From a virus (taxonomy: Duplodnaviria > Caudoviricetes), in IMG/VR virus record IMGVR_UViG_3300021400_000103: 64,000 nt of DNA, one strand, 5' to 3'. Numbering within the stretch: position 1 is the first letter of the stretch; each line of letters opens with the position of its first letter. Positions 13,611-63,987 of this stretch are shown one piece after another. Both the position numbers and the translations under genes were made by a program. The notes under the pieces were generated by a model. That model was not told the origin of the DNA. It did not search any database and saw nothing but the letters and a program-made list of their open reading frames with translations.

Positions 13611-13634
13611 CTAATGAATAAAAGGAGAAATAAT

Positions 13635-14666
13635 ATGGGAAGACATATTATCAAACATAAGATCATAAGTGAAGAATCGTGTTCTAATATTTTACCAGAG
13701 AATAAGGAATTAATGGACGACTTTCTTCGTTATTTAAAATCTATTGATAGGTCACCAACAACAATTGAAGCATACACTTCAGACTTGAATATATTTTTTG
13801 TTTATAACTTAGAAAATAACAACAATAAAAGATTTCCAGATATTACAAAACGTGAATTTATTCGTTTCCAAGACCACGCACTTAACGAGTGGCAATGGAG
13901 TCCTAGGCGTTTACGCCGAGTAAAATCTGCAATCTCTTCTCTCTCCAATTATATTGAAAATGTATTAGATGAAGATCCTAAATATGCTAACTATAAGAGT
14001 TCTATTAGAAAAATAGAATCACCAGTTAACCAACCAGTATTAGATAAGACAATATTTACAAACGAAGAACTACAGAAATTATTGGATTATTTGGTATCTA
14101 AAAAACGTTATCGTCAAGCGGCGGTATTGTCATTGTGTATGAATTCTGGTAGACGTAGGAGTGAAATACCAAGGTTTAAGACGGAATATTTTACTGATGA
14201 TAATGTAATATTCGGTTCATTATGGAAGACACCGGAGAAAGTAAAAACTAAAGGTCGTGGTTCTAAGGGTAAACAAATACATCTATATGTGCTCAAAAAA
14301 CAGTTTGAGCCTTACCTTAAACTCTGGATGGATTACAGAAAAGAAAATGGCATAGAAAGTGAATGGTTATTCCCAAATATGAACGACTATTCTAAGCCAA
14401 TGAGTACCGAAACGATGCGCATGTGGGTAAAACCATTCAGCAGATTTCTCGGTAAAGATTTTTACTGGCATTCGTTACGGCATTACTTTACTACCGAATT
14501 AGTCAGAAATGATATTCCTGCTAACGTTATTAAAGAAATGATTAATTGGGAAACAACAGATATGGTAGACTTATATACCGACCTTTCATCTGATGATTTA
14601 TTTGGAAAATACTTTGATGAAAACGGAATAAAGAAAATACAATATAGATCCGTCGCTAACTTATAG
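13635..14666 (+). CDS. Tyrosine recombinase (XerC/D-like) inside the tail module
   Basis: SAM-like N-domain; catalytic set present: SGRRRSE (R), KTKG (K), HSLRH, NW, DLY (Y); RBS aaggag before ATG 13635. Confidence 0.9.
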   Translation: MGRHIIKHKIISEESCSNILPENKELMDDFLRYLKSIDRSPTTIEAYTSDLNIFFVYNLENNNNKRFPDITKREFIRFQDHALNEWQWSPRRLRRVKSAISSLSNYIENVLDEDPKYANYKSSIRKIESPVNQPVLDKTIFTNEELQKLLDYLVSKKRYRQAAVLSLCMNSGRRRSEIPRFKTEYFTDDNVIFGSLWKTPEKVKTKGRGSKGKQIHLYVLKKQFEPYLKLWMDYRKENGIESEWLFPNMNDYSKPMSTETMRMWVKPFSRFLGKDFYWHSLRHYFTTELVRNDIPANVIKEMINWETTDMVDLYTDLSSDDLFGKYFDENGIKKIQYRSVANL

Positions 14667-23748: not shown

Positions 23749-23851
23749 GTCTCCTGACATTTTAGGCTTATTTCGGTAATAAGTGGTATCTAATGGTATC
23801 TATTTCGGCGTAAAATGGGCGTAAATTGTCACCCAAATGGGCGTAAGTCTG

Positions 23852-23881
23852 TTGACAAGCATTTCTTCGTTATGTTATAGT
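23852..23881 (+). promoter_or_regulatory. Integrase promoter
   Basis: TTGACA-N18 with extended TGnTATAGT. Confidence 0.6.
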
Positions 23882-23902
23882 CACATTAGAGGAGGTGATA
23901 TA

Positions 23903-25066
23903 ATGAAGAAACTTGCAAAACTTCCAAGAGGAGAAGGCAGTTTTTCCCGTAGAGCGAATGGATCTCTGGAGTATAAAAAGTATGTTCATGTTAACAACGG
24001 CACTATCCGCACTGTCGTGTACGGTAAAACCGAACGTGAGTGCATGGAGAAGATGCGTGAAAAGGAAGCGGCCATAAAAGAGCGGAGTAAGTTCACCTCT
24101 GATCAGTTACTCGGCGAAGCTCTTATCGTATGGATTAACAAAGTTAAGAAACCTACATTAAAGAAGCAGTCCTATGACAGACTTATAGGTGCAGCCCGTC
24201 AGATTGGTAAGTCAGATATTGGCCGCCGGTACTATAGCAAGATCGACACCATGGAACTTCAGCACTACATATATCATCTTCTTGAGTTGAGGTATGCATG
24301 GGGTACGATCAAGAAATCATATGATCTGCTCCGGGCCTTCTATCGCTACATGTCTATAAAGGAACAGTTTCGTGATCCAATGGCGCTGGTTGTTATGCCA
24401 AGGAAAGACAACGTCAAGGTAGATAGTCGGCAGATAGAATGGTTTGAAGAGGAAGATATCCAGAGGTTTACCGAAGCCTGTGATGCAAGGTGGAATACTG
24501 GTCGACTAAAGAATAAATACGCCTATGCTATCGCCGCCAATATATACCTCGGATTACGTGGTGGGGAACTTCTCAGTTTAAAATGGAAGGATGTAGACTT
24601 CGACAGAAACACAATATACGTATCAAAGACTTTGATTGAATACCGGGATAAGAACGGTAAGACTAAATTTGAAGTGCAGGAATCTACAAAGAGAGATAAG
24701 AACAGATATGTACCGATGAATTCAAAGGCCAAATCCTTCATGTTAAAGCATCTGGAGGAGAGTGAGTTTACGGATCCAGAAGACTTTGTGATATCAACGT
24801 CTAACCGTAGAACTACCACATTGAAGAATCTGTCGGACACTATCCGCAATATAGAGGAAGAAGCCGACACAACGGTACGTACTTACAATACGCATATCTT
24901 GCGTCATACATGCGCATCGCTGTACTTCAGAGCTGGCGTACCGGTCGAGACTATTTGTGCTATCCTCGGTAATACTCGTGAAGTATGTGAAAAAACATAT
25001 GTCCACTTCGCAGAGGAACAGCTCAAGAACGCTGCATCCAAAATTGTGCCGATTATTGAATTGTAG
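23903..25066 (+). CDS. int: Phage integrase (tyrosine recombinase with N-terminal arm-binding domain)
   Basis: RGEGS..R N-terminus, GLRGGELL.LKW.DVDF, HILRHT, LGN..TY; RBS ggagg before ATG 23903. Confidence 0.92.
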   Translation: MKKLAKLPRGEGSFSRRANGSLEYKKYVHVNNGTIRTVVYGKTERECMEKMREKEAAIKERSKFTSDQLLGEALIVWINKVKKPTLKKQSYDRLIGAARQIGKSDIGRRYYSKIDTMELQHYIYHLLELRYAWGTIKKSYDLLRAFYRYMSIKEQFRDPMALVVMPRKDNVKVDSRQIEWFEEEDIQRFTEACDARWNTGRLKNKYAYAIAANIYLGLRGGELLSLKWKDVDFDRNTIYVSKTLIEYRDKNGKTKFEVQESTKRDKNRYVPMNSKAKSFMLKHLEESEFTDPEDFVISTSNRRTTTLKNLSDTIRNIEEEADTTVRTYNTHILRHTCASLYFRAGVPVETICAILGNTREVCEKTYVHFAEEQLKNAASKIVPIIEL

Positions 25067-45226: not shown

Positions 45227-45532
45227 CTAATCCTTCTCCATGTAATTAGGTTTTACAAAATCATAATCCTTTGCTAGCTGTTCTTGGCGTCTATTATATT
45301 CGTCAACCTCGTCGTCAGTGTATGGTCTGGTCTCCGATAAAATGTCAATTTTATTTATGTCACCGCCGACCCTGCAATACTCATGACCGCCGTCAATAAA
45401 GCATCCACGCTTACCGTTTGACTCTTTCCAACACGTACAACACACCCAATCATGCACATGCTTGCTTTCAATGACTTCGCCACAGGTTTTGCATCGGATC
45501 GCATTCCTTATGATTTTTGTTCCTCGCTTCAT
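45227..45532 (-). CDS. Zn-finger hypothetical protein
   Basis: NAIRC..CG.VIES.H.HD..C..IDGG.EY. Confidence 0.55.
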   Translation of the reverse strand: MKRGTKIIRNAIRCKTCGEVIESKHVHDWVCCTCWKESNGKRGCFIDGGHEYCRVGGDINKIDILSETRPYTDDEVDEYNRRQEQLAKDYDFVKPNYMEKD

Positions 45533-51593: not shown

Positions 51594-52517
51594 TTATTGC
51601 TTTAGAAAATCACCATACTTCATCATGAATCTAGCTTTTGTTGATCGTGGTATTGAGTAATATTTCAGTAATTCTTTCCACAGATCCGGCTCAAATAACA
51701 CATCTTTTGCTGTCACTTTATGCTCATCCGCCATCTGATTAATTTTATCAATCATTCCGCTGGTATATAGACTGTTGGTAGATATAACACCATCAAAACC
51801 CATCTCATCAAAGGCTCTTCGGAACGCTCTAATACAATTCGTATACAACTGTTCGGGAGTTTTAAATTCCGTAGGTGTCTCTGTTGATTTAACAATGACT
51901 TTACCATACAAGTCATGTAAATTTGGATTTCCAATATATACGCTTTGTTCGTTTGCTTTAAACGCCAGATCAATTAACACTGGAGACACGCTTCTAACAA
52001 TACCATTTGGCAGCTTGACCGTCTTATTTTCTACATTAAAGTCTTCGATGTGTAGACTAAGCATATCGCTAAACTTCTTTCCACGAATCCCTTCATATAC
52101 ACACATCACCATAAACCGGTCTCTTGGATTCTTGATATTTCCAACGCTCTTCTCTACAACTTCACGAGTTAAGATGCTCATCTTGATCTGTAACTGATTA
52201 ACGCATTGATATATCTCCTGGTGAGTAAAGTCAGCAAAATGATTCATGCCATCGTCTACTAAATTATTTCGCATTGCCCAATATACATAATTCTTCAGGT
52301 TGATATGATGTACTAATAACGTCTCAAACGATTTATAGTTTTGATATTTATGAGCTTCAAAAATATCCGATTTTGTAAAATTATATAAGTCTTTTCCTTT
52401 ACTAGATTCAATTGGTTCATATCTATCAAACGTCAATGGCCAGTAGTTGTCAGGGTATTTCTTTATATCAATCTCACTCAAAAACCGTTGTTTCTGTTCC
52501 TCATTGTACATTTTCAT
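51594..52517 (-). CDS. Degenerate tyrosine-recombinase-fold protein, SPbeta MrpR(YopR)-like repressor
   Basis: MYNEEQK.RFL start, KDLYNF, NPRD.F...YEGI.G, SLY.SG; HxxR motif absent. Confidence 0.65.
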   Translation of the reverse strand: MKMYNEEQKQRFLSEIDIKKYPDNYWPLTFDRYEPIESSKGKDLYNFTKSDIFEAHKYQNYKSFETLLVHHINLKNYVYWAMRNNLVDDGMNHFADFTHQEIYQCVNQLQIKMSILTREVVEKSVGNIKNPRDRFMVMCVYEGIRGKKFSDMLSLHIEDFNVENKTVKLPNGIVRSVSPVLIDLAFKANEQSVYIGNPNLHDLYGKVIVKSTETPTEFKTPEQLYTNCIRAFRRAFDEMGFDGVISTNSLYTSGMIDKINQMADEHKVTAKDVLFEPDLWKELLKYYSIPRSTKARFMMKYGDFLKQ

Positions 52518-53674: not shown

Positions 53675-53703
53675 ATTATACAATAAAATCGTCACAATGT
53701 CAA
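53675..53703 (-). promoter_or_regulatory. Perfect-consensus sigmaA promoter of the DndB-like/MrpR-like operon
   Basis: TTGACA-N17-TATAAT. Confidence 0.85.
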
Positions 53704-53939: not shown

Positions 53940-54342
53940 TATTCACACCACCTTTTCCGTCGTATAGTTTATAATACTACTCACTCTCTTCCCATTCTGC
54001 TGGATTATACTGCATACTCAGCCATACCAAGAACGAGATAATGCTATTCCTGCCTTTACTTTGCCAGCTTCCGTCGGGATATGTCCATCTCTCAAACATC
54101 CAAATAGACGGATTATTCTCTATGATTTTTCCATTATGGTCTCCTTTTGCCATATTTCCTCTATTTGGAGATGCCGACTCTGCCCATGTACTCCATGCTC
54201 CGTATATTCTATCTGAGAACAAAGGAGGACGATCCTTAGGTTTCATGGCATGAGGGAATATATAATAAGCAAGATCTCTTTCAGATATGTTGTTTTTGAT
54301 ATACTCATAGTTTGTCATATGATCTCCCATCAAACTATTCTT

Positions 54343-54510
54343 TTATTCTCTTTGCTCTGGTGGAATCAATGAAACCGCCTCATATTCCTTTTGATGAATG
54401 CATTTTTTAGCATCGCAACACCATTCCCACCAAATATCTTCAACATAGCTTTTTTCACAACTAACACATGGTTCAACCACTAAATATTCATCATCTGTGA
54501 GTATGTTCAT
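54343..54510 (-). CDS. 55-aa Cys-rich hypothetical protein (not in ORF track)
   Basis: MNILTDDEYLVVEPCVSCEKSYVEDIWWEWCCDAKKCIHQ...; bounded by two repeats. Confidence 0.6.
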   Translation of the reverse strand: MNILTDDEYLVVEPCVSCEKSYVEDIWWEWCCDAKKCIHQKEYEAVSLIPPEQRE

Positions 54511-56024
54511 ATCTAACTCCCATCAAACTTTGTTTTTATGCACTGTACTCCACAACTCTATCCATCCCTTTAAATTTAATTCTTATCTTTACGGGGACTC
54601 CATCAGGTATGCTCCCCTTAGATTTATACACTCCTACAATCTCAGCTGTTTCTAATGATTTATGATTTTTTTCGCATTCTTTAGCTTTTTCTTTATCCGC
54701 ATAATCGGTTTTACAAATATCACAAGTATATAATTTCTTTTCGGTCATAATATCCTCCTGTCAAATATCTTCTTTATAACATTTTTGTCTTTGTATCCTA
54801 ACCCATTTAACCGCATCCTTGCATTGATTACATACTTTTGAATCAATATGCAATCCTTTTTTATATCTCTCAAATTCATCATTAGAAAATAAAACTGGTT
54901 CTCCACATATAATACAAGAAGTCCCTATTGTATCTCCATTATTGACCACTTTTTGATGCGACATTACATATTTCATTAATAAACCTCCTATCAAAAGTAG
55001 TTTTTATTTAAAAGTCTAAAGCAACCCCTTAACCGTCTATTTTACCCTTAAAATCCTAAAATAGCCTTATTAAAACAAAAAATCTGTTTTAATGTCATTT
55101 TCTTCTTAATATCTTATTGTCGTCGGCATATGCGGTACTATGTATTTAAAGTTATCGACTTCTTCCTCAACCATCCGGTCATACGTCAATATAACAGTAT
55201 CTCCCCACCACACCTTCGGATCATAGAATTTAATTTGGCGACCATCTACTTCAAATGCCTTAATAATTTGGGTTTTACCATGTGAATTCTTTTTGGTGAT
55301 AACAATATCTCCTACCGGTGTATGTTCCGTATACACCGTAAAATTAGTAGGCACACGATGTGTTTCAACTGTGTTCATTTTTACTTCTCGTTTAGGTTTT
55401 TCTAAATTACGGGTTCCAACCTCCCATTTATATCGACACGCCTGACATGCGAAACGAATATATGTCGTTTTTTGTATGGTTAATTCTTGCGATCTGCATG
55501 TATGCCACACGGGTTCTTGGTTTGTGCTTTCACTAATTGCAATACCAGGTGTTCCACATATTGGACACTCTGTTGCTGATTCCGTAACTTTCCACCCTGG
55601 AATAGGAGGAATATATCGTTCAAAGTTTTCTTTTTGCTCTTCTGGAGTAGGACAAAATATCCTTCTAAAATCATTAGTCATCTCATATTCTCCTATCAAA
55701 AATTACTTTTATGCTTTTAAAATTATACAAGATATATCAGGATCATACTCACACGACACACCTTTATATTTTGCAACGATACCTTTAGACTTATCTATTG
55801 ATTTTTCATTGATCCAATCATATGAAGTTGTAATTAACTCAATAAAATTTCTACCAATAATCATATGTGGTTCTACACCATACTCTGCCTCGAAATCATA
55901 AATGGCTTTATTAACATCATATTCCCAAAATGAATTGTCTTTAATTTCTACTATTTGTGTCATACAATTTTCTCCTTATAGTCAACGAAAGATCCAAACA
56001 TACCTTATTATCTATTCCCTTACA

Positions 56025-56549
56025 TCATTCACCAACAACCTCTATTTGACAGCTTTTCATCACTTCAAGTGCAGCCTTATGCTTCTCCGGTGTAGTACCT
56101 GCACAGCAGGAAGCATCAACAATGATGTTATTCTCTGGGAAGCAAGTCTTTAAGATAAGTGCGTTTGTGATTACACAAATATCCGTGCAAAGACCGATTA
56201 TCTCAATGTCCGAATCCTCAAAATTGATAAGATCATTTTCAAGCCAAGACCTGGAACCAAAGGTAGACTTCATACACACAACGTACTCATAGTCCGTAGG
56301 AAGTAGATCAGTAGGAATCTTATGACCATCTGATCCTACAATACAGTGCGGAACCGGCAGATGCCTACCTTCATTCGTTTCCAAGTAATCTTCATAATGA
56401 GTATCTTGTGTAAACACAATATCCCACTTGTTGTCTACATATTCTTTAATCTTCTTTTTAACATTAGGGATGATAGCAATCGCTTCATCTGTACCAAGCG
56501 CACCATCAATAAAATCTTTCTGCATATCAATAACAACTAATGTTTTCAT
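56025..56549 (-). CDS. pncA: Nicotinamidase/isochorismatase-family cysteine hydrolase
   Basis: VIDMQ.DF..GAL, T.DTH, P.HC, K.TFGS, GLCTDICV. Confidence 0.85.
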   Translation of the reverse strand: MKTLVVIDMQKDFIDGALGTDEAIAIIPNVKKKIKEYVDNKWDIVFTQDTHYEDYLETNEGRHLPVPHCIVGSDGHKIPTDLLPTDYEYVVCMKSTFGSRSWLENDLINFEDSDIEIIGLCTDICVITNALILKTCFPENNIIVDASCCAGTTPEKHKAALEVMKSCQIEVVGE

Positions 56550-57006
56550 ATTATTACACCTCGTACAATGTTTACTTTATTTTTCTGTTTCCTTTAATAT
56601 CTTAAATAACTCCTGTGATATCTGATATTCCTTACTATACTCATTACCTCTGTATTTCAAACTATCAGCATAATCGTATATTTTTGATCGCAATGCCGGT
56701 TTTTCGGTCTGATGAAACATATACTCTTTCATCTTGTCTATGTAACCTTGGTTAATTTCTATAACCGCATCCTTATACATCTTGGATACTTTCTTTTCCG
56801 TGCTTTCCATAGCGTCTTTAATTATATCTGTCATGTCAGGCGGATACAGAAGATAGTTACTATATGATTCTAGGTCGCTTTCAGCCTGATCTAAAATCAG
56901 CTTAACAAGACCTTTCTTTAAATCTTCTACATTTTCTTCTCCCAAGAGATATATTAATCCGTTTATTTTATCCATTTATTTCTCCTCCAATCAAAAGTTT
57001 ATTTTA

Positions 57007-57159
57007 TTATTCCATATACTCTTCTTCACTATATTCAGCCCAATCTCCTACATCAAAATATCCGCCAGTAACCCAATATACAAATCTTTCCATCCAATTG
57101 TAGAGTTCAACTCCATTATTAGAGTTTATTATTTCTATTAATTTTTCTAAATTCGTCAT
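57007..57159 (-). CDS. 50-aa hypothetical protein, copy A (not in ORF track)
   Basis: MTNLEKLIEIINSNNGVELYNWMERFVYWVTGGYFDVGDWAEYSEEEYME. Confidence 0.75.
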   Translation of the reverse strand: MTNLEKLIEIINSNNGVELYNWMERFVYWVTGGYFDVGDWAEYSEEEYME

Positions 57160-58269
57160 GTTTATCCTCCTATTATAAAAATTTTATTTAAATATGTTAT
57201 ATGTGACATATTTTTATCAAATATGTTTTATATAACATATTGCCAACGTCAGCAAAATGATATGATTTGCCGACATATCCTAGCCCACCAAGGACAGTAC
57301 CGGATTCAAACAGATCCACCATAAGTCTCAACAACACCGCCCCTGGCATGATGGATATGGCAGTATGATAAAAGTAGTTTGTCTGAAATGAACAAACAAG
57401 TTTCATACACTTCATAAAGAATTAATCATAATGTTAATCTCCTATAAAAGTTCTATTTTATTTTTCATAATAATCACATGGATCATCACTAAACTTTCCA
57501 AGATGATGATACATATCTTTATGACTACAGAATAATCCCCAATCACTACCTCCAGAATAATATTTACAGTTATAACAAATATCGTATCCAGATAAGTCTT
57601 TATTGTGTAAAGTACAATTATGCTCTTTATCTGCTTTAACGACATAATGTGATAGTGTACAACAAGCCACATTAACTTGTTTACTTTTTATCTCATAAGA
57701 AGACTGTTGACAATATTTACAAGTTTCACATTTCATATTATCTATCCTCCTTAAATCGCACAAGCCATGTACCATAGTTTGGTTCATACTCAACCGACTC
57801 GCACTGTTTTATTAATTCAGATACTGTGTATGTATCACATAGTTTTACACGAAACCGAGACCCATAACACATACCAACGACAAGGAATACTACACCAAAT
57901 GGGAGCGCAGGAATCCCAATCGCGGACAATTCACTTTTAAATATGATAAGGATTATAAACAAAATAATCCCAATTATTAATAGAACCAATCCAAATATCC
58001 ACATCCAATCGTAGTTAATTTCTTTTATTATCTCCATCAGTATTTTTCCTCTCTTTCGCAATCAATCCATCATTATACCCACTCAAATAAGCCAAGTCAT
58101 ATAGCCGATTTGCGTATGTTTCCCAGTCATCTGTAGGTGGTTTTAATTCAGATGTCGCTTTCTGTTTTTCAAGTGTTTTGATAGCTAGATCTAGTAACAT
58201 TTGAATTAGAATATTTATTGCATATTCTTCGTTTGACATTCGTCTGCCTCCCATCGAAAGTTTACTTTA

Positions 58270-58425
58270 TTATTCCACATACTCTTCTTCGCTATATTTT
58301 GCCCATTGTCCTGGGTCAAAATATCCGCCTGGATCAAACCAATACGCAAATTTTTCCATCCAATTGTAGAGTTCAACTCCATTATTGGACTTCATTATTT
58401 CAATTAATTTTTCTAGATTTGTCAT
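58270..58425 (-). CDS. 51-aa hypothetical protein, copy B (not in ORF track)
   Basis: MTNLEKLIEIMKSNNGVELYNWMEKFAYWFDPGGYFDPGQWAKYSEEEYVE. Confidence 0.75.
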   Translation of the reverse strand: MTNLEKLIEIMKSNNGVELYNWMEKFAYWFDPGGYFDPGQWAKYSEEEYVE

Positions 58426-58726
58426 GTGCTTATCCTCATAAAAACTCTATTTATCTTTATATACTTTGCCAAGATAATAACGCAAATATCATATTTGCTT
58501 TTTTTTATTGGTTTTCTGCCCCAGTCCATACCCAAGATTATGAAGTTGCTGTATAGCTACATCCCTCTCCCATTCAATCTGCTCGAAAGCACCTATGTAG
58601 GTTTTTAAATCCTGCATATATTCCATAAGCTGAACTTTGGAATCAGACTTCGGATCTTCAATATAGAAGCGTATTCTTTCTAACCACTCATAAACCTCTT
58701 TTGGACTATGCATATCTGGCCTCCAA

Positions 58727-59275
58727 TTAAAATTTCATTGTATAAACAATATTATGTCTGTTAATTAACTCGCTTATCTGATCCACCAAGGATTTACATT
58801 CATCTTCAACGTATTCTTTAGAACGTACAGGATAATCATCTAGATATTCACTCTCAAATTTGATTCTTCTCTGTACATTCGGATCATCACCCCAATATCT
58901 CGCCATTAATTCAAAATCTTTACCGTCCCCATAATGACCACAATCAAATCCTAGCCACCACAAATTACTTTCCACAGGATAAGTACCATTATTATCATCC
59001 GAATAAGTTAATCCACCATGAACATTGAAATATGCATCCATTCTTATTCTGTCATCATCGTCAAATGCTGCGAAAAATATCGGCAGAATACCTCGATTAC
59101 CTATTTCTTCGCCATCTAATTCAGCCTTTGGGATATCTAAGTAATCTGTAAATCCCTTTTTATATAATGGATGCCCTGGTTTGATACCTACATATCCGCA
59201 GCGATGTCCCATACCACCAAAGATAACTACACATCTGTAACCCTTATATGTAAAATCTGATTCTACCTTATACAT
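58727..59275 (-). CDS. Conserved phage hypothetical protein
   Basis: GHRCGYV, VHGGLTY, WW.GFDC.H motifs. Confidence 0.6.
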   Translation of the reverse strand: MYKVESDFTYKGYRCVVIFGGMGHRCGYVGIKPGHPLYKKGFTDYLDIPKAELDGEEIGNRGILPIFFAAFDDDDRIRMDAYFNVHGGLTYSDDNNGTYPVESNLWWLGFDCGHYGDGKDFELMARYWGDDPNVQRRIKFESEYLDDYPVRSKEYVEDECKSLVDQISELINRHNIVYTMKF

Positions 59276-60269
59276 TTAATCTCTTATATTACCTCCTTCT
59301 ACCAAATCCTACTACAATATCCGAACCACAGATATCACAATGAATAAAACAATAGCCAGTTTCTTTTTCATACTCTGTTAATTCATTTCGATCAATAACC
59401 AATCCATATCTTAAATCTTTTGGACACCGACAGATGGCGTATATGTATCTATCATATTTAAGTTGGCCTAATAATTGTGGTTTTGTATGATGATATTTCA
59501 TATTAATCTCCTATAAAACTCTGATTTAACTGTTTGCAATAGATGCTATATTAGATTCAATTTTCTTATATGTGTCATTTGCCATAAGAATGTTTAGAAC
59601 TGACTGACTTAACATATTTCTAGTGCTTTCATCAAACACAGTCTTAACATTTTTATTGATTTCTTGACGTATCTTATCAACTTCTTTATCTAAATATGCT
59701 TTTACCTCATTGTCTATCCCACAATTAGCTCTAATATATTCATCAAAAGAATATTCATCTGTTTTAATGTCATATTTATCTGAGTAACGATTCTTCGCTA
59801 CGGACTTTACAACCTTAAATTTGCCATTATTTATAATATTTTTCATACATCTTTTTACATATTGGATAAATGTCAGTTCTTCTTTTGGCGTATCATCCCA
59901 AATTAAATCTCCGCCAATAGTAATTTTTTCTGTATTCATATAATCTTCTATGATTTCCTTTATGATTTCCCCAGTCTGCAGCTGTATTTTTTCATGAATA
60001 TCCGCTAAACATTCTTCCTTTATTTGATTAATTACTTCTCGATATAAGTTTTCTTTAAGACTCCGAACAACGGCAGTAACAATACCATTAGCAAAATTTT
60101 CAGTGTTGAAATTTATATTGATAATTCCATTACTATTTTCTGTACTTGTATTTTCCATACCGTCCATCTCCTCCATTTCCTCCTGAGTTGGTTCATAATC
60201 TTCATCGTAATACATATGTATATCCTCCAATAAAAATTCAGTTTTATTGCCTTTCGAAGTTTTTAATTA

Positions 60270-60466
60270 TATACGGTAGTCGCTTCATCCTTGTCCTTTT
60301 ACACTTTCGGAGCTAATCCTGACCCACCGCTTAGATGATTAGTTTAAACCACACGAGGGTACTACCATGTGGTTACAGGGCACATATTCATTTATATACC
60401 GCAGCGAAACCTCTTCATCAGGAGGGATAATCCGCTAAGATTGGTACCACTGCCACCCCTGCGGTA
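60270..60466 (-). ncRNA. Candidate structured non-coding RNA(s)
   Basis: GC-richer ORF-free segment with multiple stems and pseudoknot pairings (see findings); strand inferred from flanking genes. Confidence 0.5.
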
Positions 60467-60480
60467 ATAGAAGACTCATT

Positions 60481-61569
60481 TTATTCATCAAATTTCATCA
60501 AGAACTTCGGACTAACAGCCTTAAATGATTGCTTACCATCTGCCGTTCTAAACACTATTCCTTCTCGTAAAGTGTCATATAACTTACTTGTTCCGGTTGC
60601 GTAATCAAGAACTTCATTCACCGTCATACCCTTAAGTTTTACCGCTGTATCAAGTATTGGAACAAATTTAAGCCCTTTACTTTCCATTAATTCCTTAGCT
60701 TCCACTGATCCAAGCCTACCCGACGGATAAATCACATTGAATACATATAACTCATATCCATCTATATGATATTTATTACCTTGAATCCCAGTACCGCAGC
60801 ACTCACCCTGGATTGCAATCCATTCATTATCTCCAATCAATTCATTGAGTATCTGTTCTATATTATATTTCTCAGCTACCGACCAAAATGATGAATTATC
60901 TTTTTTCCACTTCCTTAGATTACGACTACACACGGCGAAATCATAAGTTGTTTTATTCCACCAATGTTTTCCTTTTATTTTCTGTAATGTAAAGCTGCCG
61001 GACTGCCCATCGCATTTTTCTGTAGCTATCCATTCGATATCTAAATCAAGATAAAAAGGACAGTTTTGGATACGAGTTTCATCCGTTTTAGAAATAAATG
61101 ATGGGAAACCTCGTGCCTGTTTCTTTGGTAATACAAGATCTCTAAACCACTTAAATTTCATTAAGAATTTTGGATATCTCTTCTTAGGTTGATAGTCTTT
61201 TTCTTCAACCTCCTCTTTATCCATTGTTGGTTCGTACTGCGTAATCCCCATTACTTCTGTTACATCCTGCCCAATTTCGTAATCTCCTTCAGGAAGAAAA
61301 GAAAGAGGAAAGCATATACCTTGGGACACAACTCCCGACATCTTCATCGTCTTAATCCTAAACTTCTTACTTCTAAGAAATTCATACTCTGGCTTTTCAG
61401 GAAATACAGAATCAATTTCGCAAAATACTACCTTGTCTCCTACGTTAAAATCCGATTTCTGTACTATAACTTGCCAACCCAAAACTCCGGCTAATACAAT
61501 TCGATCTTTACCTTCTATCGGAGTCATCCATTCTATTTTCTCTATATGCGCTAACGCTCTATCACTCAT
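60481..61569 (-). CDS. RNA ligase (Rnl2/DRB0094-like family)
   Basis: N-terminal OB-like domain, KTDETRIQ, TEKCDG (motif I), QGE, FN, EGIV, FK.VS..FL. Confidence 0.88.
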   Translation of the reverse strand: MSDRALAHIEKIEWMTPIEGKDRIVLAGVLGWQVIVQKSDFNVGDKVVFCEIDSVFPEKPEYEFLRSKKFRIKTMKMSGVVSQGICFPLSFLPEGDYEIGQDVTEVMGITQYEPTMDKEEVEEKDYQPKKRYPKFLMKFKWFRDLVLPKKQARGFPSFISKTDETRIQNCPFYLDLDIEWIATEKCDGQSGSFTLQKIKGKHWWNKTTYDFAVCSRNLRKWKKDNSSFWSVAEKYNIEQILNELIGDNEWIAIQGECCGTGIQGNKYHIDGYELYVFNVIYPSGRLGSVEAKELMESKGLKFVPILDTAVKLKGMTVNEVLDYATGTSKLYDTLREGIVFRTADGKQSFKAVSPKFLMKFDE

Positions 61570-61880: not shown

Positions 61881-62486
61881 TTATCCATTCAGTTCACCGT
61901 CCTCAGTCTCCGGCACATGGTCGGTGGATTCACGATTAAGGATCTTGAAAGCTGGGCGAACCCCACCAGAGGTGGAAGCGTTGCTGTAGCTCGCATTCCC
62001 GTTGCCGTTCACAAAAGCGAAGTAGGCAGGAAGCGCAACCGAACGCAACCACATATACTCATATGAACAACCTCGTCTTTCCGCAATACGATGTCTACGA
62101 TTCTTAAAATATGGTATCTGACCATCGCAAGCGTCAAAGCCTTCATTTAATCCGCAGACCTCCTGTAATGACAGGAGCCATAGATAGTCTCCATGATACC
62201 CCTCACAGAGCTGGACTCCGTACTTCTTCTTCATTTTCTTTGCGAACCTGTTTCCAAGTCCATGCAGATACTCCCTCATTTCTGACTTATCATATCCGCC
62301 ATCAGTTGTGTCAGTAGCATTCATTCGCCTTGCATCGTCCAGGAACTGATCAAAAACGAAAAGCATCTCGTCACCCTGCTGCTGAATTGCCGTAGCGGAG
62401 TATTTACTCCCATCAAATTTGAATTTTATCCGGTCGCCAATCTGAAAGTGATTGGTCTCGATTTTTATCTTACGATATACCTTCAT
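61881..62486 (-). CDS. DUF6273-like / C-type-lectin-fold protein
   Basis: GGY..S.MR..L, LLS..E, WLRS, V...G......AS...GVRPAF. Confidence 0.7.
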   Translation of the reverse strand: MKVYRKIKIETNHFQIGDRIKFKFDGSKYSATAIQQQGDEMLFVFDQFLDDARRMNATDTTDGGYDKSEMREYLHGLGNRFAKKMKKKYGVQLCEGYHGDYLWLLSLQEVCGLNEGFDACDGQIPYFKNRRHRIAERRGCSYEYMWLRSVALPAYFAFVNGNGNASYSNASTSGGVRPAFKILNRESTDHVPETEDGELNG

Positions 62487-62557: not shown

Positions 62558-63987
62558 TCACTCTATATCTCCTTCTGCCTTGTTTCTTTTATAATTCCCA
62601 CAGTTAGGACAATAATCGTAGTCGTAGATGCTTGCTCCCGTTTCAGCATCATAACTAAACTCTTCACCACAACGAGAACAAACCCACATATCTAATGTTT
62701 TATCACCATATATATAGTGTCTTCTTGTCCAATTACCGTTTGGATGAAGTGGTGTGCCATTTTTTAGAGCATTTTCAAGTATTTCATCATCCATGATATT
62801 CAGCGTTCTATGGGTTTGAATTATTTTGTATATTCTATCGGGAATTTCAATTACTATCTTCATCAACGTTTACCTCCCCAATAATGTTCCAAAAGTTAAC
62901 TCCTGTCGTTTTCGCAGAATCAGCTATATATTGCTTAACACTTTCCCTTTCTTCCTCGGTGGCATCTCTCATATTAAACATCAAAGGTCTTTGATTGATA
63001 ACAGCATCTACTACTAACGATTGGAAGTATATACTGAGTCCATTTAATATTTCTCTATCTCTTTTCAACTCATTTAACCACTCCGCAAGCTGTCTAAAAT
63101 CAAGGCACCCTTGCAGATTACCATGTGTGCGCTCATATTCTGCATTGTTTTTATATCTTTCAATCGCTTCATCAAGTGTCATTCTTCCACCTCTATCTTT
63201 GCACCGCAGTTAGGACAATAATGATACAAAGAAATAACATCTTTTTCATTCTTATCAGCACATTCAATTACAATACTCCTGCACTCTGAACAATGCCAAT
63301 TTCCAAATTTAGGATTATAGTCATATTGTACCCATTCCCAATGTCCCGGCTTTCTCTCCGGCACTTCGGAAACAATAGTCTTATTTCCAACAACTGACAC
63401 CTCATATATACCGCTCTTATGAAAAACAATTCCTGTGCATACTTCATATTGGGATTCTGTTTTGTTTTCAAAAACAATAGGTTCTTTGACAGAAATGTAT
63501 TCTTCATTGCCTCCTATGAATTCAGCCATTCTTATACCTCCATCTTTGCACCGCACGCACAGCAATAATCCTGTGATGTATCTCCTGCAAGTTTTCCACA
63601 TTCAGAACAATAAGGTTCATCAGCCTCATATCTCTCCAACACTGATATGGTATGTGTTTCTCCCATCTCGTCCTGTCCTGTATAACGTTTTACCGCATTA
63701 TGAGTTTTATGTTTCATTACCCAATGCCCCGTCTTTGGTTGTGGTGTAACGGGTTGTAACGCTTTGATATCATCACGCATTTGCCAAAATTTTGTTGCTC
63801 CCATATGTTCTGCATATTTTGCTTGTACTTCAAGTACCGCCTGTCTGCTGATACAATCTCCACATTTCTTACGATTTTCATAGTGTGTTTTCAAAAGCCA
63901 CTCTAAATGCTCAAAATCCTTTTCTGTCGGAAGTGCCACAAGTGCAATCAATTCGTCATGATCCGCTTTGTGAAAAGCATCGATCAA
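62558..63987 (-). other. Run of small hypothetical genes; three end in a G.W..CS.C..YC..CG Zn-ribbon
   Basis: ORFs 62558..62866, 63179..~63530 and 63532..63987 share the motif. Confidence 0.55.

Follow-up and report, generated by a model that had tools for sequence, protein, structure and literature searches.

The DNA analysed here (64,000 nucleotides of the IMG/VR virus record IMGVR_UViG_3300021400_000103, Duplodnaviria; Caudoviricetes; hereafter the window) comes from a large (~140 kb), SPbeta-like phage. It contains an array of small genes, most of which are joined by a short recurrent sequence that we call the linker. On the coding (-) strand, the linker has the consensus AATAAAA-N6-TTTKAT-N-GGAG, followed by a short A-rich gap and an ATG, the start codon being placed 9-14 nt past the first G of GGAG. 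The array units are promoterless, co-oriented and mostly single-gene, only two of the genes have family matches (isochorismatase and phrog_2164), and the GC content is 33-34%, against 37-44% in the other 2-kb bins of the window except one bin at 10-12 kb. Among the 18 gene junctions between 60.5 and 54.0 kb, seven have an exact linker, ~7 a degenerate one and 4-5 none. The array and its linkers, read from the RNA ligase side, are:

53977-60230, minus strand: array of ~19 small co-oriented genes, between the RNA ligase gene (60481-61569) and a DndB-like gene
60467-60484, minus strand: left half-linker ATAAAA-TGAGTC-TTCTAT, at the RNA ligase stop codon
60225-60247, minus strand: linker 1, exact, after a 250-nt non-coding leader and before a 229-aa gene (59526-60215)
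59508-59530, minus strand: linker 2, one mismatch, its left arm GTTAAA holding the upstream TAA, before a 70-aa gene (59289-59501)
58721-58738, minus strand: partial linker without spacer, found by direct reading (weak score with the position weight matrix, PWM), before a 74-aa gene (58489-58713)
58433-58455, minus strand: degenerate linker, before a 51-aa gene (58270-58425)
58248-58270, minus strand: degenerate linker ATAAAG...TTCGAT (PWM score 19.1), before a 74-aa gene (58015-58239)
57439-57461, minus strand: exact linker, followed by only a 5-codon open reading frame (ORF) and then by a conserved structured element (57255-57372)
57167-57187, minus strand: degenerate linker, before a 50-aa gene (57007-57159), paralogue of 58270-58425
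56985-57007, minus strand: exact linker, before a 132-aa gene (56577-56975; family F0)
56557-56580, minus strand: degenerate linker, before an isochorismatase-family gene (56025-56549)
55690-55712, minus strand: exact linker, before a 191-aa gene (55106-55681)
54985-55007, minus strand: exact linker with ~90 nt of non-coding DNA upstream, ATAAAA not being a stop, before a 71-aa gene (54761-54976)
54754-54776, minus strand: degenerate linker ATAAAG...TTTGAC, before a 70-aa gene (54536-54748)
54517-54539, minus strand: exact linker, spacer ACAAAG, before a 55-aa gene (54343-54510)
54324-54346, minus strand: exact linker, spacer GAATAG, before a 113-aa gene (53977-54318)

These 14 linker sites are placed at ribosome sites, without promoters, within 6.3 kb. 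An earlier note on this DNA had described them as 18-bp palindromes (ATNAAA-N6-TTTNAT), seven exact and nine degenerate, all at gene boundaries between 54329 and 60484 and delimiting integron-like cassettes. The seven exact 18-mers are present where it had placed them, and its statement that the clustering is not random is borne out, the loose 18-mer having 16 matches in the window versus 0.56 expected from shuffles, and the 23-nt form ATAAAA-N6-TTTKAT-N-GGAG nine exact matches, all on the minus strand, versus none in 100 shuffles. Instead of nine degenerate copies we recovered ~7, plus the left half-site at 60467-60484. A PWM built from the linker sites gave 11 matches on the minus strand of the window and 0-2 on the plus strand, and the motif is missing from all of the other ~50 minus-strand gene starts. 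Besides the seven exact sites, the loose 18-mer has nine other matches; six of them begin with ATGAAA, and the stop/GGAG context of the array was not seen in these nine, except at 45337 and 62412. The seven exact 23-nt copies that join genes of the array (54.3-60.3 kb) do lie at gene boundaries; the other two lie beyond the interval proposed earlier and inside coding sequence:

62407-62429, minus strand: full-consensus copy within the DUF6273 gene (61881-62486), not followed by a start codon
45332-45354, minus strand: full-consensus copy, likewise not followed by a start codon, within a 101-aa gene that is intact and conserved

Since the pattern did not appear in any of the 100 shuffles, chance is a very unlikely origin for these two copies. 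The second falls in the most variable stretch of the 101-aa gene, the rest of which is conserved over its full length in the related contig G001 (see below).

In the window array the usual stop of the upstream gene is the TAA inside ATAAAA, and GGAG begins one base past the 18-mer, which agrees with the earlier description of a stop within the site and a ribosome-binding site right after it. The term palindrome is not appropriate, as the arms are not complementary and the motif is one-sided, running on into the Shine-Dalgarno (SD) sequence. With TTTGAT facing ATAAAA, five of the seven exact sites contain an A-G mismatch. In a set of 70 non-identical sites, G occupies the fourth position of the right arm in 40%, whereas C occupies the partner position of the left arm in 1%, which indicates that complementarity is not under selection. 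When folded as single-stranded DNA of either strand, the same proportion of exact sites (5/7) gave 0 to -1.5 kcal/mol, no better than shuffles, and a weak A/T hairpin is formed by the two TTTTAT variants alone; folding yielded no stable stem-loop terminator at the linker sites. ATAAAA is retained at two sites where it does not serve as a stop (54985-55007 and 60225-60247, both preceded by non-coding DNA), and TTTKAT is held at a constant distance of one base from GGAG; the linker is therefore more than a stop codon adjacent to an SD. A reading as an extended SD was rejected as improbable, since the 3' end of Firmicute 16S rRNA would demand AGAAA ahead of GGAGG.

The absence of a promoter at each site, as proposed earlier, was confirmed: promoter-like and terminator-like matches in consensus scans were at chance level. 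No position beyond the 23 nt is conserved in 70 aligned sites, which leaves no room for a -35/-10 pair, and a promoter reading, with TTGATn as -35 or ATAAAA as -10, was rejected for want of a conserved partner hexamer. These results bear on the alternative offered by the earlier note, that the sites form a DNA operator array by which a repressor, MrpR-like or other, silences the array in the lysogen. A candidate repressor gene is located nearby:

51594-52517: gene of an MrpR-like protein, adjoining that of the DndB-like protein

In SPbeta, MrpR binds a repeated 15-bp operator, SPBRE, at about ten promoter regions (PMC10516654), so that both systems have a short repeated element in an SPbeta-like phage with an MrpR-like protein. 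The linkers, however, are far more numerous, lie inside operons at nearly every ribosome-binding site of the array instead of at promoters, occur in a single strand orientation with asymmetric arms, and keep a fixed distance from the start codon. Furthermore, the MrpR-like protein of the window is only around 30% (29-31%) identical to those of the phages that share the linker motif. We thus consider an operator array very unlikely.

Close relatives of the window were not found among isolated phages: megablast returned nothing, distant blastn three tiny matches, and tblastn with the 132-aa protein nothing. The comparison was made with relatives from viromes and metagenomes: G001, a 141.8-kb viral contig (locus L053; complete contig L195-L202) that is syntenic with the window and 65-92% identical in nucleotide sequence in patches, loci L205-L207, recovered via a conserved non-coding element, and loci L208-L220, recovered via homologues of the 132-aa array protein. 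The window-derived PWM detected 14-21 sites on the gene strand of G001 and 0-2 on the opposite strand; when both strands of L206 and L208-L220 were scored, opposite-strand matches were zero. In 11 non-redundant loci, 69 linkers were identified with the same matrix. The start codon of the next gene lies 9-14 nt past the first G of GGAG in 56 of 60 cases, the TAA of ATAAAA is the upstream stop in 24, and a stop falls within or just before the linker in ~50 of the 69. A few upstream genes pass the left arm in another frame and end at a TGA or TAG of the right arm, for example at 54754-54776 in the window, where the upstream gene reads past the left arm to the right-arm TGA (the L206 version of this linker is intact), and in L217, where the 132-aa protein has a longer form. 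In the four linkers that have no downstream start, a small sample, GGAG is degenerate (GGGG, GGAT, GGGT, GGCG), and this decay fits a function in translation.

The linker is conserved though the shared proteins of these phages are just 76-83% identical and their other array genes are unrelated. This conservation bears on a neutral explanation, in which the similarity of the linkers stems from recent duplication of genes together with their leaders and has no function beyond the SD. The array is A/T-rich and contains paralogous genes with similar linkers after them, both in line with such hitch-hiking; the persistence of the motif at that degree of protein divergence and the decay of GGAG where no start follows speak against it, and we regard it as scarcely probable. 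A generic motif scan of viral contigs gave, among the matches listed, single chance-like ones only; the linker-2 pattern was found across viral contigs in G001 only; the 191-aa gene has no relatives among viral contigs; and a search of genome contigs for hosts or prophages, by the non-coding element pattern and by protein alignment, returned nothing. In the RNA-ligase relatives L001-L012 the linker motif is absent, and other upstream motifs are used.

Small-gene arrays with other recurring upstream motifs are present in L004 and L005 (downstream of the RNA ligase) and at 1100-4300 of L053. Examples of their motifs are GTTTCnTTGG, ~10 nt before the SD, GTAGAAAGTGAGG, and GGAGGTAAACGCTG-ATG, the last of which is also found in the window, ahead of a gene starting at 62863.

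Gene content around the linkers is strongly mosaic. Each of nine phages has a different gene upstream of the 132-aa gene, one lineage shows an inverted order of this gene and the isochorismatase gene, and the linker type at 56985-57007 accompanies the 132-aa gene in four phages with differing upstream genes. For genes shared pairwise, the upstream neighbour differs in 51 of 52 cases with a linker versus 102 of 137 without, counts which are not phylogenetically independent and whose no-linker group includes conserved backbone genes. The same gene family may be preceded by a linker in one phage but by an ordinary SD in another. The window and G001 have five spacer types in common (six matching pairs) versus 0.36 expected (P ~2e-6); apart from a duplicated type, their order is the same in both, and for four of the five types both flanking genes belong to different families. 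The spacers TAAACT, TAGAAC, TGAAAC, GTACAA, CTGAAT and ACAAAG recur across phages before different genes: the linker 1 type (CTGAAT) is also found in G001 and L206, ahead of different genes, and ACAAAG precedes three different genes in the window, G001 and L206. A near-identical copy of linker 2 lies between unrelated genes in both G001 and L205.

The earlier note had suggested asking whether gene gain and loss in relatives break at the sites; the breakpoints of gain, loss and replacement are very often at or next to a linker, and some are inside genes. Where the window has the single linker 55690-55712, two additional genes are present in L206, bordered on both sides by a linker copy. L209 has a different gene between the linker types of 58248-58270 (found there after a paralogous gene) and 56985-57007, and in the same locus the isochorismatase gene is joined to the middle of the 191-aa gene (window position 55452). 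The fusion point of linker 2 in the window lies a few codons inside the 70-aa gene; in L205 this gene overlaps the gene before it by ATGA. The linker at 60467-60484, full versions of which are present in G001, L205 and L207, is cut in its right arm (60467-60472) and fused straight to a conserved non-coding element, not to GGAG. The point at which homology ends within linkers thus varies (downstream of the SD, at ATAAAA, or in the right arm), and a fixed crossover point was not found in the comparisons with L206, L209, L205 and G001. Breakpoints inside genes and at differing positions of the linker argue against a site-specific recombinase.

Three side observations concern duplications and scars in these arrays. 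The 50-aa (57007-57159) and 51-aa (58270-58425) genes, both on the minus strand, are paralogous and each is followed by a near-identical linker, which suggests a duplicated gene-plus-linker unit or unequal crossing-over. In L216 (6753-6800), directly after the 132-aa gene, stands a decayed copy of the upstream linker and first codons of that gene, which looks like a relic of a tandem duplication or an unequal crossover. At 57410-57427 (minus strand) the 5-codon ORF ends in a TGA that forms an ATGA overlap with the start of a 72-codon ORF, which lacks an SD and spans the structured element; this arrangement is probably a scar, not a gene.

The earlier note had inferred an integron-like cassette system, in which a tyrosine recombinase would cut the 18-bp sites and move single-gene cassettes. 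As in integrons, the units are co-oriented, promoterless, mostly single-gene and without assigned function, a site recurs between them, and their content varies between relatives; in addition, indels are flanked by linkers, the same spacers stand between unrelated genes, an Xer-like recombinase is encoded upstream of the arrays in several relatives, and the window has two tyrosine recombinases:

23837-25066: integrase
13614-14666: second tyrosine recombinase

An integron-type integrase is nevertheless absent: the three window proteins with a tyrosine-recombinase fold score 19-22 bits on TIGR02249 (integron integrase; cutoff 265), none of the three adjoins the head of the array, and IntI, attI and Pc are all lacking. 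The attC sites of integrons are ~57-141 bp long, while the linker measures 18-23 bp, does not fold and holds the ribosome site of the next gene; a long foldable palindrome of the attC type was not found at the exact sites. In the classical core of tyrosine recombinases, inverted arms of ~9-13 bp flank an overlap region that is identical in the partner sites. The linker arms, by contrast, are 6 bp long and A/T-only and have a non-complementary position, and the spacers differ within one genome. The scatter of the junctions, downstream of the SD, at ATAAAA, within the right arm or within genes, is likewise at odds with site-specific exchange. An integron-like system is, on this evidence, highly improbable.

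A related possibility is that the linkers are recombination sites of a phage cassette exchange of a non-integron kind, with small circular gene-plus-linker units passing between co-infecting phages. The bipartite, A/T-rich core of the linker would then be the substrate of a phage recombinase, Xer-like or other, or of a single-strand annealing protein that prefers certain sequences. The Xer-like recombinases upstream of the arrays of G001, L205, L210, L219 and L220 belong to one family (F6), whose catalytic motifs seem intact by eye. F6 was rejected as a dedicated linker enzyme, being absent from the window and common (~35 related loci) where linkers are nearly lacking. Such an exchange has, in our view, only a slim chance of being the correct account.

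A trio of genes encoding an Xer-like recombinase, a DndB-like and an MrpR-like protein is conserved in ~35 viral loci (L013-L052), at around 8.8-12.1 kb of each locus. In the window the recombinase of the trio is missing, and the array directly adjoins the DndB-like gene. A perfect consensus promoter (TTGACA-17-TATAAT, 53675-53703, minus strand) lies just upstream of the DndB-like/MrpR-like pair, which suggests that the pair would be transcribed apart from the array.

The linker has a defined anatomy, is strand-specific, is restricted to arrays, is conserved in a family of phages and is associated with mosaic junctions. We propose, at a probability of roughly 0.6, that it is a portable intercistronic module, consisting of a stop, a leader and an SD, in a polycistronic array of accessory genes, and that it also serves as a junction for homologous or illegitimate recombination. 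The TAA in ATAAAA would end the upstream gene, with the right arm providing a TGA or TAG in a second frame; the unstructured, A/U-rich N6-UUUKAU would form the leader; and GGAG would be presented at a set distance from the next start codon. The A/U-rich part presumably acts at the RNA level: it may enhance or couple translation, and might in addition be targeted by a trans-acting regulator. Because a module of ~23 nt recurs between unrelated genes, it would provide recombination with a short homology together with a ready-made stop and ribosome site. Whole genes may in this way be swapped, inserted or deleted at linkers between co-infecting relatives, for which a dedicated site-specific recombinase would not be needed; the linker thus probably eases gene shuffling.

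Several results weigh against this proposal. An open ribosome site alone cannot explain why ATAAAA and TTTKAT are conserved at fixed spacing, nor why ATAAAA is retained at the two sites where it is not a stop. The two perfect copies within coding sequence, lacking a start codon, are not accounted for. In a tightly packed array, breakpoints that preserve genes necessarily fall near a linker, and the association between linkers and breakpoints is therefore partly forced. Lastly, related lineages, and even separate arrays of one phage, have distinct array-specific motifs, so that a lineage-specific binding factor could be involved rather than the ribosome. According to this last view, AUAAAA-N6-UUUKAU by the SD would be an RNA-level site that a phage or host factor, a translational repressor or an endoribonuclease, binds or cuts to switch the array as a whole, in the manner of T4 RegA and RegB, which act on early mRNAs. 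The sequence is specific, has a fixed spacing, is adjacent to the SD, is limited to particular arrays with variants of its own in each array and lineage, and is conserved in ATAAAA even at non-stop positions, all of which would be expected of such a site. A candidate factor was not identified, most array proteins being without a family, and local duplication or gene conversion would equally yield array-specific variants, as the linkers of the 50-aa and 51-aa paralogues exemplify. We judge RNA-level switching unlikely; it would be compatible with a role of the linker as recombination junction.

The closest described analogue of the intercistronic module that we propose is the promoter-early stem-loop (PeSL) of T4-type phages, which contains a strong sigma-70 promoter and a G+C-rich stem-loop terminator, makes each gene its own transcription unit, and is exchanged by what has been ascribed to homologous recombination between copies (Arbiol et al. 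2010, PMC2839356; Comeau et al. 2014, PMC4122927). Like the linker, PeSL is a short, conserved intergenic module in which the upstream stop is followed by a stretch rich in A/T and then by the SD and start of the gene downstream; it stands ahead of orphan genes in hyperplastic regions, and coincides with the breakpoints of indels and replacements. The linker differs in its length (~23 nt) and in having neither the sigma-70 promoter nor the stem-loop terminator, hence it would act within a polycistronic mRNA; it also differs in its carrier, a Firmicute-type SPbeta-like siphovirus versus a T4-like myovirus.

For the A/U-rich part taken separately, a second analogy may be drawn. The leader of T7 gene 10 contains "epsilon", an A/U-rich translational enhancer upstream of the SD. 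The linker is similarly A/U-rich, unstructured and immediately 5' of a strong SD in phage genes, and many of its spacers end in AAC followed by UUU, resembling the epsilon core; it differs from epsilon in being bipartite, with a fixed form, and in including the upstream stop codon.

The 23-nt signature marks hypervariable arrays of accessory genes in a family of large uncultured SPbeta-like phages. These arrays are a likely store of counter-defence and host-takeover genes, in view of the annotations in the relatives: isochorismatase is found in their equivalent arrays, and those of L213, L217 and L210 match Tad4 (PF25186), Thg1, RNA ligase and HD, as well as nucleoside deoxyribosyltransferase, acetyltransferase, RadC and adenylosuccinate synthetase, a content that fits an accessory or counter-defence role. 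If the linker operates as we propose, the idea derived from PeSL, that regulatory linkers double as shuffling junctions, would also hold for a phage group far removed from the T4-like phages of Gram-negative hosts. The case also advises caution before A/T-rich pseudo-palindromes at gene boundaries are called an integron.

Two conserved non-coding elements accompany the linkers:

60345-60469, minus strand: conserved element between the RNA ligase gene and the array, without Rfam match
57255-57372, minus strand: element of ~110 nt forming a long rod-like hairpin (consensus -42 kcal/mol, one compensatory pair)

The first is 92% identical in G001, 99% in L206 (over 91 nt) and 100% in L207 (over 78 nt), phages that are otherwise 65-86% identical, and shows compensatory changes in one stem between the window and G001; in the window ~95 extra nt separate it from linker 1. 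The second holds a stretch that resembles the T-arm of a tRNA, GGTTCGAATCC, and its placement relative to the other non-coding element varies between the window, L206 and G001. ARAGORN and Rfam made no call for it, and it could be a Y-RNA-like or tRNA-like RNA or the remnant of an attachment site. With Rfam at the gathering threshold only tRNAs were detected, and at a relaxed threshold nothing credible was found between 54.9 and 60.5 kb. The non-coding elements were rejected as antisense regulators of the linkers, since no convincing complementarity was seen by eye.

Elsewhere, the window encodes DNA polymerase III alpha, NrdD, a DnaB-like helicase, a primase, ThyX and five tRNAs, together with a PD-(D/E)XK nuclease and a protein of PF13479 (AAA_24), which we take to be a family that includes the Sak4 phage recombinases.

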